Notes under the pieces: generated by a model | Database searches by the model: none | What the model was told of the DNA's origin: nothing | Seen by the model: only the letters and a program-made list of their open reading frames with translations | From: an uncultured Candidatus Competibacteraceae bacterium | GTDB taxonomy: Bacteria > Bacteroidota > Bacteroidia > CAIKAF01 | DNA length: 64,000 bases | Assembly: GCA_964578885.1 (NCBI GenBank) | Contig: CAZOEO010000005.1 | Location: 91,752 to 155,751, forward strand | Direction of reading: 5' to 3' | Translations under genes and position numbers: made by a program | Shown here: positions 27,941 through 31,643 of the stretch, piece after piece | Layout: each line of letters opens with the position of its first letter | Position numbering within the stretch: position 1 is the stretch's first letter

Positions 27941-28014
27941 TCCTCCTTAGCTCAGTTGGTTAGAGCATCTGACTGTTAATCAGAGGGTCGCTGGTTCAAG
28001 TCCAGCAGGGGGAG
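27941..28014 (+). tRNA. tRNA-Asn (anticodon GTT)
   Basis: TCCTCCT acceptor stem, D-arm GCTCAGTTGGTTAGAGC, anticodon loop CTGTTAA, T-arm GGTTCAAGTCC. Close to E. coli tRNA-Asn. No encoded CCA. Confidence 0.9.
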
Positions 28015-28017
28015 CAG

Positions 28018-28050
28018 AAAGCCTCACAGCAATGTGAGGCTTTTTTTGTT
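28018..28050 (+). terminator. rho-independent terminator after tRNA-Asn
   Basis: 8-bp stem gcctcaca/tgtgaggc with a gcaa loop, followed by TTTTTTT. Confidence 0.6.
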
Positions 28051-28086
28051 TGTTTTGAAAGTGACTATGTATTGCTACTCCAAAGG

Positions 28087-28524
28087 CTAAAACGGCTGGG
28101 GTTCAATCATCGGAAGAAAGGCATTATGCAAAGGCGTACCTTTAAAAGAAGCAAACATTACACCTCTCGTAGTGGAAATGGAGATGCTGTTTACAATATC
28201 TAATAACTGCTGTGGCAAAGCGATTTTCCCCGTAGATTCAGTTTTGATTATCGCATCAAAGTTCTTTAGTTCAAATATGCAATTCACAGAAATTGCTCCT
28301 AGGGCTATAGATTGATTTTCGGTGAGTATTTCAACATGAACGATGGCAAACAGGAGTTTATCTAGAGCATCTACTTTAGTTTCAATATTGATATTGAATT
28401 TAAAATTGCCGGGATTGATCGTTCCTGGAGCGAGCATATATTGATTACTGCTAAGTAATTCTATGCCCTTTAGTTGAATTTCAATATTCCTACTTTTACT
28501 CGTTTCTATTTTCTTTCGTTTCAT
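28087..28524 (-). CDS. hypothetical protein
   Basis: 145-aa ORF in an AT-rich region downstream of the XRE gene. No motif recognised. Confidence 0.3.
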   Translation of the reverse strand: MKRKKIETSKSRNIEIQLKGIELLSSNQYMLAPGTINPGNFKFNINIETKVDALDKLLFAIVHVEILTENQSIALGAISVNCIFELKNFDAIIKTESTGKIALPQQLLDIVNSISISTTRGVMFASFKGTPLHNAFLPMIEPQPF

Positions 28525-28560
28525 TTTATAACAAATTATTGCCTAGCCCGTGTATAGCTT

Positions 28561-28962
28561 TTATATAGGTTTGTCTTTATAAGAAATTGGATCTTCGTTC
28601 ACGGAATAATTTTTCGTTGAATACGTAATGTACTGGTATGAAGCGGCAGAAAATGTATTTGTATAGACATCCTTTACTTGTTTTTGCGCAAAAAGTACAG
28701 CAATCTCCACACCGAGAACCTGCGAAATTTGCACAAGTGTTTCAACCGTAAAATTATGAGCACCACTCAACCACTTTGAAATTTCAGGTTGAGTTTTGTT
28801 TAGCTCCGAGGCAAATCTAGTCTTTGACCAACCTTTAGACCTGATGAGATCTTCAATATTGGCTGCCAATTGCATTTTGACATTTGTTTGCTCCATTTCC
28901 AAAGGAGTTGCCTCATTCTGTAATTCTTGGATTAATGGGCTATTATATTCTCTCGCTTTCAT
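28561..28962 (-). CDS. XRE-family helix-turn-helix protein (putative antitoxin / HigA-like)
   Basis: HTH_XRE signature (WSKTRFASELNKTQPEISKWLSGAHNFTVETLVQISQVLGVEI). Sits immediately downstream of the Gp49-like gene. Confidence 0.6.
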   Translation of the reverse strand: MKAREYNSPLIQELQNEATPLEMEQTNVKMQLAANIEDLIRSKGWSKTRFASELNKTQPEISKWLSGAHNFTVETLVQISQVLGVEIAVLFAQKQVKDVYTNTFSAASYQYITYSTKNYSVNEDPISYKDKPI

Positions 28963-28982
28963 GATGTTGTCTGTTTTGTTTG

Positions 28983-29480
28983 TTATTCTTCGTCTTCAAA
29001 AAAGTAAAAATTACCTTCCAGTTCTGGCTTGTCTCTCGACATGTATATTTCTCCGCTGTCCATTCGCCTTGCTATGTCTTTGGCGTATTCAATCATTCTT
29101 GTCGCTTCCTCAGTCAACTTTGTATCATCTTGCCATGCCATCGTTTCCTTTGTTTTCAACCCGCCACCTCCGAGAATTATAACGTCTGAACCGTATCTGA
29201 TGCAATACAATCTTAGATTTTTTTCGGGCAGATCGTACAATGCACAAACACCATCGCCATACCGACCTTCAAAATGCTTGAAATAAGAATGCCTTGCACC
29301 ATGCTTTGTACCTATTAGCTTCAGCCTGTTATTTATATCTCTTACTTCTTCCCTGAAATCAGCTATGTTTTCGTTTATAAAAACATCATACAGCGTCAAA
29401 CCTCCTCTTTCTGGAATGATGGAATACACTGTACACTGCCTTCCACTCAAAAGACTTAATTTGACAATCTCGTATTCCAC
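28983..29480 (-). CDS. Gp49-like / HigB-type (RelE/ParE superfamily) putative toxin, extended form
   Basis: Core pattern GDGVCALYD...RLYCIRYGSDVIILGGGGLKTKE resembles the Gp49 (PF05973-like) motif G-D-G-hy-x-E-L-R ... Y-R-hy-hy-Y ... hy-hy-hy-L-x-G-x-x-K-K. Located upstream of the XRE partner. Confidence 0.4.
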   Translation of the reverse strand: MEYEIVKLSLLSGRQCTVYSIIPERGGLTLYDVFINENIADFREEVRDINNRLKLIGTKHGARHSYFKHFEGRYGDGVCALYDLPEKNLRLYCIRYGSDVIILGGGGLKTKETMAWQDDTKLTEEATRMIEYAKDIARRMDSGEIYMSRDKPELEGNFYFFEDEE

Positions 29481-29748
29481 TTGGCTTTTAGCCTATAAAT
29501 GATGTATAATTTAACTTTTAACGTATAAAAGGCGGGGGATTTACATCCTTTTTCAAATTTAAGAAGACATTTCCACATTTTCATAACTTATAAGTTAATT
29601 TTATGCTTTAACATCGACCAAACACTAGTTGTCGCCAATATAAATCCACCTAAAATTTTGTTAAGCAAGTAATTAAGTGTTGCATAAGCACGCAACTCAT
29701 CCCAGAATTGGTTCGAGAATAGACCATTGTGGGGAGCAGAAAAATCAA

Positions 29749-29781
29749 GGGGTTACATAAACGTAACCCCTTTTTTATTTC
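29749..29781. terminator. perfect 8-bp stem hairpin + T-run in an AT-rich non-coding region
   Basis: ggggttac-ataaac-gtaacccc followed by ttttttattt. No annotated + strand gene upstream. Confidence 0.35.
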
Positions 29782-30014
29782 CCATTGTAACACAAATCGA
29801 ATTTTTTGGGGTTTCACTTGCTGCAATAACCTTGTGAGTGAATGCGGCTTTTTTTGTCTTTCAGCGAGCATTTTTTCAATGATCTTGTCCAGGGAAAATG
29901 AATATTTTTGAGACAAATCAAACTAATCATGAAAAGAAAGCCAATCGACTTTCCAAGGCGTTGGGGATGATTAACCATACCCTTGTCAAAGATGAAATTT
30001 AAACTGAGATAAAA

Positions 30015-30431
30015 ATGAAAAAGCTATATTTTACTTCAACCATACTAACACTGCTTTTATCTTTTGGATGCGGTGATATTACACCTAAGAAAAAAGACAA
30101 AAATCCTGAAAGCGATAGGGTGTTTTTAGAATTAACTGAGAGGGAAATGAACGGCATTAAAATTAGTTTAGAACAGGGCGTTGAAATCTGTGGGTGCATA
30201 AAAACATCAAGCAAGGATTTTGAAGCAGTATGGGCTGCGGCTTGTACGGTAAAAAATGGACTTACAGATGTGGGCGTTTGGGCGATTACAAAAAATGCAG
30301 GTACATTTAGTTCTGTATCGGCCTATACCACACTCGTCAGTGATTTTGGAGAACATCCTGATGTATCCATGAGGGACGACGGATTTCAAGAGGCTCATGA
30401 CAAGGCAAAAGAAATGTTTCCATGTAAATAA
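30015..30431 (+). CDS. hypothetical lipoprotein
   Basis: Signal peptide with lipobox LLLSFGC. 138 aa. Confidence 0.4.
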   Translation: MKKLYFTSTILTLLLSFGCGDITPKKKDKNPESDRVFLELTEREMNGIKISLEQGVEICGCIKTSSKDFEAVWAAACTVKNGLTDVGVWAITKNAGTFSSVSAYTTLVSDFGEHPDVSMRDDGFQEAHDKAKEMFPCK

Positions 30432-30656
30432 GTTGTTTTAAAGCCCAAAGGTCAAGCATCACTTAGGCTCATCACTAAAAGATTCGGGTTAAGCAAATTA
30501 TTTCACAAGGGGCTTCCCGCCCCTTTTTTATTCCTTCGTGTACTGGGGCTGTGCTTTTCGAACAGGTTCAATGGATACAAAATAGCCGGTTTAAGGAACA
30601 AAAAACACCCTTTTATCAACTTAAAAACACATCTCTAACGTCCAAACAATAAAAAT

Positions 30657-31643
30657 ATGAACAAAACAATTCTACATCTCAGTTCGGTATTCATGGCCAA
30701 ACTGCTGCTAACGCCCATGGTTTTTGCCCAAGGGGTTGGTATTAACACCGCGGGAGCCACCCCGGATCCATCGGCCATTTTGGATGCTTCAAGCACAACG
30801 CAAGGCTTTTTACCGCCACGCATGACCACCGCACAGCGAAATGCCATTAGCGCTCCGGCAGAGGGTTTAATGATATACAACACAGATTTAAAATGCATAC
30901 AGTTCAACAAAGGCACGTCTGCGATCCCCAACTGGTCGTGCACCGATGGAACCAATCAGAGTAATCCTTGTGGAACCAGCACGGTAACTTTTATCTATAA
31001 TGGAGCGCCCGTAACCTATGGCACCGTCGTAGGTGCAAACTACAGGTGCTGGCTCGACCGTAACTTAGGAGCAAGCCAAGTGGCAACCTCCAGCACAGAT
31101 CATCTATCTTATGGCGATTTCTTCCAATGGGGAAGAGGCGACGATGGGCACCAACGTATCAACTGGACCAGTGCCACCTCCGGCACGGCTGTGAACGTTT
31201 CTTCCAGTGCCACAAGCAATTCAATAACGCCTGGCAATGCTGATTTTCTCGGCCAAGGCGTGAATAACTGGTACACCGGAATGTCGCCCCACCCTGACTC
31301 GTTATGGCAAGGGGTTAACGGCATCAACAACCCTTGTCCAGCAGGTTGGAGAATACCTACACTCGCTGAATTAATTGCTGAAAAAGACAGTTGGAGCAGT
31401 GATGACCCGGCCGGAGCTTTTGCCTCACCGCTTAAGTTGCCCATGGCTGGCATGCGCGCGTGGAACCAGCCTAACACTTTATGGAATGTCGGTGACCATG
31501 GCTTCTATTGGAGCAGCACCATTAGTAACAATCCACAAGGCGGCGTTTCACGCTACATCTACTTCGATTGGTGGAATTCAGCAACCCAAATAAGCCAAAC
31601 CCAACGAACCAATGGCGTCAATGTTCGTTGCATTAAGGATTAA
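30657..31643 (+). CDS. secreted protein with Fibrobacter succinogenes major paralogous (FISUMP) domain
   Basis: Signal peptide. FISUMP hallmarks YRCWLDRNLGA, FQWGR, CPAGWRIPTLAEL, GFYWSST. Its N-terminal module is shared with the protein at 61486-62709. Confidence 0.7.
   Translation: MNKTILHLSSVFMAKLLLTPMVFAQGVGINTAGATPDPSAILDASSTTQGFLPPRMTTAQRNAISAPAEGLMIYNTDLKCIQFNKGTSAIPNWSCTDGTNQSNPCGTSTVTFIYNGAPVTYGTVVGANYRCWLDRNLGASQVATSSTDHLSYGDFFQWGRGDDGHQRINWTSATSGTAVNVSSSATSNSITPGNADFLGQGVNNWYTGMSPHPDSLWQGVNGINNPCPAGWRIPTLAELIAEKDSWSSDDPAGAFASPLKLPMAGMRAWNQPNTLWNVGDHGFYWSSTISNNPQGGVSRYIYFDWWNSATQISQTQRTNGVNVRCIKD

Follow-up and report, generated by a model that had tools for sequence, protein, structure and literature searches.

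Described TAC Systems and Related Gene Pairs

Toxin-antitoxin-chaperone (TAC) modules are known growth-arrest and anti-phage switches of bacteria. In Escherichia coli HigBAC, which is said (Mets et al. 2024) to be a phage-sensing TAC, a phage protein titrates the chaperone. Its toxin is of the HigB type, its HTH antitoxin bears an aromatic chaperone-addiction (ChAD) element, and its chaperone, HigC, is SecB-like; the locus described here appears to share these features, along with the aromatic enrichment of the antitoxin tail. MqsRAC, HicAB-chaperone, and CmdTAC likewise possess a SecB-like third gene controlling a ChAD-bearing antitoxin but employ other toxin families (MqsR, HicA, and the ADP-ribosyltransferase CmdT, respectively). 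[quoted passage not shown] They also occur in two-gene form: phage N15 Gp49/Gp48 and HigBA2-type pairs (PF05973 plus XRE) have the same toxin-first order and fold as the present locus but lack its chaperone gene and antitoxin tail.

The TAC operon of Mycobacterium tuberculosis (Mtb) is arranged as higB-higA-Rv1957, that is, toxin, HTH antitoxin, and chaperone (PMC9098466, PMC3581621). The E. coli HigBAC system is that of strain NT1F31, which appears under the name C496 in PMC11980606. A 2013 survey of TAC systems does not mention Bacteroidota, and housekeeping SecB is found mainly in alpha-, beta-, and gamma-proteobacteria (PMC3581621). The assignment proposed below would extend TAC systems to Bacteroidota.

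Organization of the Locus

The locus was found in a 64,000-nucleotide stretch of DNA (the window) downstream of a tRNA-Asn gene (Table 1). As the original prediction had noted, the base composition becomes AT-richer immediately 3′ of the tRNA (GC 0.37 versus 0.45 for the window), and the low-GC segment contains three co-directional minus-strand genes encoding proteins of 165 (A), 133 (B), and 145 (C) residues, separated by gaps of only 20 and 36 nt. We consider it likely that they are transcribed as a single operon and make up a three-part TAC module of the HigBAC type. This assignment draws on the modelled folds of A and C, on the HTH domain in B, on a gene order that is conserved, and on the way the B tail co-varies with C. 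The gene order is the same as in Mtb HigB1 (Rv1955)-HigA1 (Rv1956)-Rv1957, but the host phylum differs and sequence similarity to that system is undetectable: the toxins are 7% identical, the chaperones 8-13%, and HMM and hhalign comparisons were negative.

Table 1. Features of the cassette and its borders, in window coordinates
Feature	Position	Strand	Basis or remark
tRNA-Asn (GTT), genomic anchor of the cassette	27941..28015	+	ARAGORN; Rfam tRNA 70.8 bits
Direct repeat GGGGAGCAGAAA, copy 1	28009..28020	+	Covers the end of the tRNA acceptor stem and the next 5-6 nt
Intrinsic terminator hairpin after the tRNA	28016..28045	+	Terminator scan: 13-bp stem, then T-run
Gene C, predicted SecB-like TAC chaperone, 145 aa	28087..28524	-	
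Gene B, putative XRE/HTH antitoxin, 133 aa	28561..28962	-	Pfam HTH_3 E 6e-10; PADLOC PDC-M64C/B E 3e-20; tail analysis
Gene A, putative HigB-like toxin, RelE/ParE fold, 165 aa, GTG start	28983..29480	-	
Upstream leader and predicted promoter region of the operon	29481..29697	-	Read from sequence; palindrome
Degenerate tRNA 3′ half, ending in repeat copy 2 (29731-29742)	29698..29742	+	Alignment with relatives
Variable low-GC spacer, cassette to conserved flank	29743..30600	.	blastn breakpoints 29741/29939 and 30600; gene tables
Terminator hairpin past the pseudo-tRNA end	29747..29772	+	Differs in each relative at the same position

The adjacent proteins A, B, and C match, over nearly their full lengths, the HMMs of the PADLOC candidate PDC-M64 (PDLC04756, E 9e-39; PDLC04760, E 3e-20; and PDLC04763, E 3e-13, respectively), and the gene trio is therefore already catalogued. 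PADLOC lists PDC-M64 as a candidate that has not been validated and gives it no function. No publication on PDC-M64 turned up in a literature search, and a search for SecB-like TA systems in Bacteroidetes returned nothing specific; as far as could be checked, the TAC reading is new relative to the PADLOC entry. It offers a concrete, testable mechanism for a trio whose members are mostly labelled "hypothetical protein" in the source databases.

A Bacteroidetes-type -7 box (TAAATTTG, 29561-29554) is located 74 nt before the GTG of gene A and is overlapped by a short palindrome (29550-29565), within a leader that is 96-98% conserved in three relatives (L086, L089, and L090). We infer from these sequence features that the region around the box acts as the operon promoter. 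Sites retrieved by a sigma-70 promoter scan were no commoner than in shuffled sequence; the sigma-70 model is also unsuited to Bacteroidota. Rfam searches detected no RNA family besides tRNA. The hairpin directly following the tRNA could be a bidirectional terminator that also serves the converging cassette operon.

Gene A, a Putative Toxin with a RelE/ParE Fold

By structural comparison, protein A has a RelE/ParE fold and, near its C-terminus, a long helix α3 of the kind typical of Gp49-like toxins (PMC9098466). Residues ~1-142 comprise the core and helix α3, followed by a β-hairpin and an acidic tail (residues ~143-165). Relative to the Mtb TAC toxin, A is 40 residues longer, and these extra residues are scattered and mostly C-terminal, in the hairpin and tail; the ~50-residue N-terminal extension originally proposed for this protein is not seen.

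At the sequence level, every profile comparison was negative. Pfam and NCBIfam yielded nothing at E≤1 for the window toxin or for 47 divergent relatives, and the proposed match to PF05973/RelE-ParE profiles was not obtained. PHROGs gave no meaningful match for A or for C, and a PDB-sequence profile search with A retrieved only chance matches to antibody light chains (YYC...FGGG versus LYCIRYG..GGGG). Alignment of the toxin A family by hhalign with HigB1 alone, or with a profile of 13 HigB-TAC sequences, each of them carrying PF05973, was not significant (Prob ≤1%). Because these tests were negative, the earlier statement that the core of A fits the Gp49/HigB motif is true of the fold only. By modelled fold, not by sequence, A appears most like the Gp49-type HigB toxins.

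The one hhalign register found (Prob ≤1%, one gap) places the invariant R90, R95, and K109 of A opposite R77, R82, and K95 of HigB1. In HigB1, R77 and K95 are required for toxicity, and R82 contacts 23S rRNA (PMC9098466); R77 and K95 belong to the conserved catalytic pocket, along with K58, E66, R68, N73, and K99. In the same nonsignificant register, HigB1 K58, E66, R68, and N73 fall opposite E71, C79, L81, and E86 and so are without counterparts in the window toxin, which means that RNase chemistry is not assured for A. Residues E71, D76, C79, D83, C93, and Q117 are instead invariant in this family; if they have replaced most of the catalytic pocket, A may act by chemistry other than canonical A-site mRNA cleavage. 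A TAC-like module with a toxin that does something other than cut mRNA on the ribosome, either a ParE-like action on gyrase or different chemistry built on these residues, is an alternative, one that we regard as unlikely though worth keeping in view. The preferred reading remains that of a HigB-type toxin: given that its closest counterparts are the A-site mRNA-cutting Gp49-type HigB proteins, A would most likely arrest translation, with both its toxicity and its RNase chemistry predicted by analogy.

Gene B, a Putative Antitoxin with an Aromatic Tail

Protein B contains an HTH domain at residues 38-89 (nt 28851-28696) that exceeds the Pfam cutoffs for both HTH_3 (PF01381, 39.4 bits versus 23) and HTH_37 (31.6 versus 27). 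Scores for the NCBIfam equivalogs HigA (14.6 bits versus 47.7) and HipB (19.2 versus 79) were far under their cutoffs. Following the HTH is a poorly charged tail of 39 residues (residues 95-133, nt 28680-28564), seven of which are aromatic. Across the family, where B is accompanied by C, its tail has a median length of 50 residues (range 34-64) and an F/W/Y content of 11.1%, versus 5.9% in the B core. The ChAD of E. coli HigBAC is longer, with 96 residues and four spaced aromatic motifs. Mtb HigA1 displays a Val-Ala ClpXP degron, whereas the window tail ends in ...DKPI; Ala-ending tails make up one third of the family. On the strength of its composition and its co-occurrence with C, the tail appears to be a ChAD-like element, which chaperone C would be expected to bind.

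Gene C, a Predicted SecB-like Chaperone

The model of C displays a SecB fold (TM-scores to SecB of 0.4-0.55), and among structures it matches best the Mtb TAC chaperone Rv1957. The model is moderately confident, with a pLDDT of 78.9 and two of the five models at ~50. Although the window protein itself matches no SecB HMM and has no above-threshold match in Pfam or NCBIfam, traces of SecB are detectable among its relatives. NCBIfam SecB, the sole family matched by more than one member, was retrieved below threshold by four of 35 (best E 0.002), and Pfam SecB (PF02556) by one of 35 (E 0.02), also below threshold and the best Pfam E-value among the members. Alignment of C with E. coli SecB by hhalign brought the β-sheet into register over 80 columns, with nonsignificant scores (E 0.005, Prob 7%), and a PDB-sequence profile search with C retrieved nothing. 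Fold, together with weak sequence support, points to C being a SecB-like chaperone. Both the toxin and the chaperone thus escape the models now in Pfam and NCBIfam, and only their structures give them away.

The suggestion that the 145-residue protein might be a third component of the system is borne out by this fold and by the retention of the gene after B. A three-component system could also be built differently, with C acting as a second antitoxin, as an adaptor delivering B to a protease, or as a sensor or effector with a repurposed SecB-like β-sheet; we judge such arrangements improbable and favor the chaperone assignment.

Family Survey and Co-variation of Tail and Chaperone

The family comprises ~1,100 clusters at 50% identity, with 246 hits in GTDB species representatives, almost all Bacteroidota, and the trio is common throughout that phylum, with gut, soil, and freshwater lineages among its carriers. 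Among 80 Bacteroidota loci surveyed, 69 have the order A-B-C, three have B and C fused, three have A-B only, and five are uninformative. All three genes are thus present in order in 72 of the 75 informative loci, distributed over many Bacteroidota orders. In 84% of loci gene A overlaps gene B, and in 93% no more than 15 nt separates B from C. The family is also carried on 48 viral contigs (IMG/VR), where all 47 informative copies encode A and a 98-residue B with a ~13-residue tail and are without C, which is exactly the Gp49/Gp48-type architecture. Being essentially one clade, these 47 copies count as few independent events.

Such two-gene forms, represented by three chromosomal loci and 47 viral contigs, indicate that A and B can make a complete unit. 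Together with the failure of C to reach a Pfam or NCBIfam threshold, they favor an ordinary two-gene HigBA-type pair in which the 145-residue gene is an unrelated neighbor or passenger. The survey argues strongly against this explanation, and we hold it to be very improbable. The near-constant position of C directly after B is difficult to reconcile with a passenger, as is the fusion of the two genes into one ORF in three loci from two separate lineages and the identification of the Mtb TAC chaperone as the top structural match of C. Furthermore, the aromatic B tail is missing wherever C is missing: the three chromosomal A-B loci encode tails of 7 residues, 10 residues, or 34 non-aromatic residues, and the 47 viral copies retain only the short tail described above. 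The original comparison to HigBA therefore holds for the toxin-first, XRE/HTH-second order but not for the number of genes, a three-gene TAC being the better description.

Close relatives provide a further argument. Between the window and L086, L089, and L090, whose flanks are 96-99% identical, A is ~100% identical and the N-terminus and HTH of B are 85-87% identical, versus 50% for the B tail and 72% for C. The tail and C thus recombine as one block, exchanged between near-identical strains while the toxin was retained, again contrary to a passenger role for C. This pattern agrees with the modularity of the tail-plus-chaperone "sensor" of E. coli HigBAC. The family thus offers natural experiments on chaperone addiction: phages carry two genes without tail or chaperone, chromosomes carry three, some loci have B fused to C, and tail and chaperone are swapped as a block between strains.

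A more far-reaching interpretation, which we advance tentatively and consider doubtful as a whole, is that the family represents the largest unrecognized TAC lineage, with tail and chaperone serving as an exchangeable sensor, a toxin whose pocket has been replaced, and B-C fusions that would be the first single-chain antitoxin-chaperones. Under that interpretation, swaps of tail and chaperone with the toxin kept would point to phage triggers as the source of diversifying selection.

Proposed Mechanism

In the mechanism that we propose, the HTH and N-terminal segment of B would bind toxin A and probably the promoter of its own operon. The 39-residue tail would render B unstable or aggregation-prone when alone, and C, by holding the tail, would keep B functional. 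Titration of C or loss of B would then free A and lead to growth arrest. An anti-phage role is suggested by analogy with the E. coli TACs and by the candidate status of the trio in PADLOC.

Cassette Boundaries and Mobility

The island-like, tRNA-adjacent placement originally suggested for the locus is supported by variable flanks among close relatives and by an att-like repeat at its far end. The 12-nt direct repeat GGGGAGCAGAAA has two exact copies in the 64 kb (28009-28020 and 29731-29742); with ≤1 mismatch allowed, the expected number of matches is 0.38, and two were reached in three of 100 shuffles. Homology to the window resumes at 29741 in L082, L085, and L001, where each has the start of a block, coinciding with copy 2. 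This copy terminates a degenerate tRNA 3′ half of ~45 nt, consisting of a T-arm with a 5-nt insertion, the acceptor strand, and GGGAGCA, which can be aligned to the 3′ half of tRNA-Asn in the window, L082, and L003 and is conserved in the latter two. Local alignment of the tRNA 3′ half with the region upstream of A supports the 12-mer only (score 24, equalled in seven of 1826 windows), the basis for the longer pseudo-tRNA similarity being the multiple alignment with relatives. The degenerate half appears to be an att-like boundary on the far side of the cassette.

The same cassette is flanked by tRNA-Asn and RbfA in the window and the near-identical strains L081, L088, and L002, and by hydrolase, NmrA, and SDR genes in L082-L084. 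The initial ~35 nt of the latter junction are also seen in L085, whose contig then ends. Comparison of the tRNA-Asn locus among relatives, as had been proposed, thus revealed variation in the flanks and in the spacer (29743-30600), but an empty site was not recovered among the relatives compared. We take the 1.66-kb cassette (28087-29741) to be a module that moves horizontally, lodged in variable low-GC DNA where tRNA-Asn ends.

A conserved core regulatory operon unrelated to toxin systems, its AT-richness incidental, is the competing explanation for this placement. Housekeeping genes do surround the cassette in several genomes, and the 1.7-kb segment holds the three genes only, with no integrase-like protein among the ORFs searched (28016-31643). 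However, the homology boundaries at 28087-29741 are sharp, the flanks differ between near-identical strains, and the GC content of the cassette departs from that of the window. In about 11 of the 80 loci the cassette is no more than ~500 bp away from a tRNA or tmRNA gene, and carriage on the 48 viral contigs, the match to a PADLOC defence candidate, and the toxin and chaperone folds likewise speak against a core operon, which we find scarcely credible. A defence-island context was considered separately and rejected, as the neighborhoods of three divergent homologues consist of ordinary chromosomal or orphan genes. Beyond the mobile module, the spacer in the window carries a lipoprotein-like ORF of 138 aa (30015-30431, plus strand), and other genes occupy this position in L082 and L083.

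Cassette Layout and Assignment

Both the AT-rich patch beside tRNA-Asn and the three minus-strand ORFs (145, 133, and 165 aa) beyond its terminator were found as first described, with GC falling to 0.368 over 28087-29741 and to 0.373 over 28016-30600 from ~0.46 in both flanks. The genes encode a 165-aa toxin-like protein (A), an XRE-type antitoxin (B), and a SecB-like protein (C). Two fold searches, independent of each other, lead from A to the toxin and from C to the chaperone of one known operon, the toxin-antitoxin-chaperone (TAC) operon of Mycobacterium tuberculosis (HigB1-HigA1-Rv1957). Its gene order of toxin, HTH antitoxin, and chaperone (PMC9098466, PMC3581621) is identical to that of the trio. 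Upstream of A lies a putative -7 promoter element of the Bacteroidetes type; the short AT palindrome that it overlaps could, judged by its sequence, be an operator for the antitoxin. The 88-aa ORF farther upstream is probably not a gene.

Features of the locus and of related cassettes on other contigs
Feature	Position	Strand	Remarks
tRNA-Asn(GTT)	27941-28015	+	ARAGORN, Rfam
12-mer GGGGAGCAGAAA, first copy	28009-28020		tRNA 3' end
Terminator hairpin 3' of tRNA-Asn	28016-28045		terminator scan
Gene C	28087-28524	-	145 aa
Gene B	28561-28962	-	133 aa; Pfam HTH_3, E 6e-10
Gene A	28983-29480	-	165 aa; GTG start
AT palindrome TTTTCAAATTTAAGAA	29550-29565		
-7 element TAAATTTG	29554-29561	-	74 nt upstream of A's GTG start
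88-aa ORF	29650-29916	-	overlaps pseudo-tRNA remnant and two terminator hairpins
12-mer, second copy	29731-29742		cassette boundary
138-aa ORF	30015-30431	+	lipoprotein-type signal (…LLLSFGCGD)
328-aa protein	30657-31643	+	C-terminal Fib_succ_major/FISUMP domain, sub-threshold
B-C fusion, L012	6485-7375		294-297 aa in all three; HTH, tail, chaperone domain in order
B-C fusion, L013	5289-6182		
B-C fusion, L040	6482-7366		
Second A-B-C cassette, L050	10481-11855		

Toxin-like Protein A

Protein A has no family match in Pfam, NCBIfam, or PHROG and is matched end to end by the PADLOC model PDC-M64B (E 9e-39). Its large family varies little in length. It counts 425 relatives at 90% clustering; at 50% identity there are 1,101 clusters, with lengths that almost all fall at 155-175 aa, and the 246 confirmed matches among GTDB species representatives are almost all from Bacteroidota. 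The profile test originally proposed for A failed at the sequence level: at E<=1, neither PF05973 nor any other RelE/ParE model matches any of 47 divergent relatives, and hhalign of the family gives a probability <=1% both with HigB1 and with a profile built from HigB1's PF05973-bearing relatives. The sole register obtained, at this low probability, lays A residues 75-103 on HigB1 residues 62-90, placing the invariant R90 and R95 on R77 and R82 and, with one gap, the invariant K109 on K95. HigB1 toxicity requires R77 and K95 (PMC9098466). In the same low-probability register, K58, E66, R68, and N73 of HigB1 are without counterpart in A. Several invariant acidic residues of the A family lack a counterpart in HigB1.

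The fold of A also removes the supposed ~50-aa N-terminal extension, as residues 1-60 form the normal N-terminal strands and helices α1 and α2. Helix 120-142 corresponds to the long α3 that is a hallmark of Gp49-type toxins (PMC9098466). Compared with HigB1, A has ~40 additional residues dispersed along the chain, ~20 of them C-terminal, where the model suggests a hairpin at 145-156 followed by an acidic tail. The family alignment displays a conserved acidic C-terminal tail (…FFEDEE) after the β-hairpin, two invariant cysteines (C79 and C93) on neighboring strands, and the invariant residues E71, D76, D83, and Q117.

SecB-like Protein C

The PADLOC model PDC-M64C (E 3e-13) is the only sequence-level match to C itself. 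The modeled structure comprises four long antiparallel strands and a long helix (pLDDT 78.9), and the top 20 Foldseek matches are all Rv1957 or SecB chains (best E 3e-4, TM 0.53). Sequence comparison points weakly in the same direction: NCBIfam SecB is the sole family matched by more than one of 35 C relatives (4 members, best E 0.002), Pfam SecB gives their lowest Pfam E-value (0.02), and hhalign places the β-sheet of C in register with that of E. coli SecB across 80 columns (E 0.005).

Antitoxin Tail and Its Linkage to the Chaperone

Protein B consists of a 34-residue N-terminal segment, an XRE HTH at residues 38-89, and a 39-residue tail (QVKDVYTNTFSAASYQYITYSTKNYSVNEDPISYKDKPI) with seven aromatic residues. 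The tails of 67 relatives are poorly conserved (median 50 aa), richer in F/W/Y than the rest of B (11.1% vs 5.9%), and poorer in charged residues, often with a β-strand-like alternation at the start. Chaperone-addiction (ChAD) elements display spaced aromatics that pockets of the SecB-like chaperone recognize and that render the antitoxin aggregation-prone (bioRxiv 10.1101/2024.02.24.581848; PMC5105189; PMC6377645), a description that the B tails match. The last tail residue is Ala in 22, Cys in 10, and Asn in 10 of the 67 (L002-L080), the Ala recalling the Val-Ala and Ala-Ala ClpXP degrons of M. tuberculosis HigA1 and CmdA; unlike these, the window tail ends in …KPI.

The linkage of the three genes is conserved. 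Among 80 genomic loci, 69 are A-B-C, three carry fused B-C, three carry A-B only, and five are uninformative; the reading frames of A and B overlap in 84%, and the B-C gap is <=15 nt in 93%. The fusions (~295 aa) occur in two Candidatus Opimibacter contigs (L012 and L013) and one from Marinifilaceae (L040), two unrelated lineages, and no report of single-chain antitoxin-chaperones was found in the literature examined. In the three A-B-only loci, unrelated genes lie 3' of B, whose tail measures 7 or 10 aa or consists of 34 non-aromatic residues. Among IMG/VR sequences, 48 viral contigs (L097-L144) carry an A relative at 37-44% identity; in all 47 that are informative, it is accompanied by a B of 98 aa whose tail has ~13 residues, and C is missing. 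Since the tail is short or non-aromatic in C-less chromosomal and viral loci alike, tail and chaperone are present or absent together. These viral contigs represent a phage or prophage clade, and many of them span 30-57 kb.

A swap of the same two elements is visible at strain level. Three contigs that appear to derive from the same population as the window (L086, L089, and L090) have flanks 96-99% identical to it and a mosaic cassette allele: identity is 96-98% in the upstream region, ~100% in A, and 85-87% in the N-terminus and HTH of B, vs 50% in the B tail and 72% in C. At 50%, the tail sequences are effectively unrelated. The recombination breakpoint lies inside B, at the HTH/tail junction, so that tail and chaperone move as one block. 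Such a block swap is a prediction of the TAC model and agrees, from sequence comparison, with the modularity of TACs demonstrated by experiment (bioRxiv 10.1101/2024.02.24.581848).

In a Chitinophagales contig (L050), the cassette is followed 4 kb downstream by a second, very divergent one, which phmmer matches to the window proteins at E values of about 1e-7 to 1e-8, so paralogous TACs coexist in one genome. All matches are from Bacteroidota except a 96%-identical cassette binned as 'Candidatus Competibacteraceae' (Gammaproteobacteria; L001, CAZRHR010000115.1) and a 47%-identical one binned as 'Bacillota' (L049, JAKPZU010000110.1), both of which probably reflect short contigs assigned to the wrong bin rather than cross-phylum transfer.

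Proposed Mechanism and Novelty

TAC systems are known in M. tuberculosis and E. coli, including MqsRAC, HicAB-chaperone, and CmdTAC variants. The analysis shows the folds of A and C, the HTH domain of B, and the conserved linkage of the genes, together with the co-variation of tail and chaperone, the B-C fusions, and the module swap. By the TAC model, A would most likely arrest translation as HigB does, B would neutralize A and probably repress its own operon, and the tail would make B dependent on C, whose loss or titration would release A. We infer that A is toxic and that the tail physically binds the chaperone; as the HigB1 pocket is conserved only in part, RNase chemistry of A is put forward on the same footing. 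An anti-phage role may be proposed by analogy with E. coli HigBAC and CmdTAC and from the unvalidated candidate status of the PADLOC entry (for the meaning of 'PDC', see PMC11514479). The gene trio is already catalogued as PDC-M64. In the searchable literature, no paper was found that identifies it as a TAC, describes how widely it occurs in Bacteroidota, notes that its toxin and chaperone are sequence orphans, or reports the natural series of two-gene, three-gene, and fused forms.

Boundaries and Possible Integration Site of the Putative Island

The anticipated tRNA-adjacent island is supported by sharp boundaries, varying flanks, and a 12-mer repeat, and is not proven, as no empty tRNA-Asn site was found among the relatives compared. 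The cassette segment contains no integrase, so that the cassette would be mobilized in trans or is a remnant. By blastn against near-identical contigs, the cassette runs from 28087 (stop codon of C) to 29741. The C-side flank is tRNA-Asn in the window, L081, L088, and L002; hydrolase, NmrA-like, and SDR genes in L082-L084, with L085 sharing that junction over its initial ~35 nt, up to the end of the contig; and a further, different one in L086, L089, and L090. The 12-mer occurs exactly twice in the window, and a ~45-nt segment around the second copy aligns with the 3' half of tRNA-Asn in the window, L082, and L003 (T-arm with a 5-nt insertion, acceptor strand, and GGGAGCA), followed by a terminator that differs in each. 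From its sequence, this pseudo-tRNA boundary resembles an att-type scar, as left when an element integrates into a tRNA gene. In about 11 of the 80 loci, the cassette has a tRNA or tmRNA gene within ~500 bp, the rough expectation being ~2% for ~45 tRNA genes per 5-Mb genome; elsewhere, the cassette is a stand-alone insert amid ordinary genes.

The same comparison gives a second common breakpoint at 30600, just upstream of the next gene. The low-GC spacer at 29743-30600, between cassette and conserved flank, looks like an insertion hotspot: it holds the 138-aa lipoprotein-like ORF, without family match, in the window, L086, L087, and L089; a 175-aa ORF in L082; and a 3.7-kb multi-gene block in L083, which includes a GYF_2/transglutaminase-core protein. 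Beyond the gene for the 328-aa protein, the relatives encode a Por_Secre_tail (T9SS) protein further along, in support of a Bacteroidota origin for the window. The gene for the 328-aa protein itself, for whose relatives PTL_trimer is also listed, is kept beside the variable patch in all close relatives.
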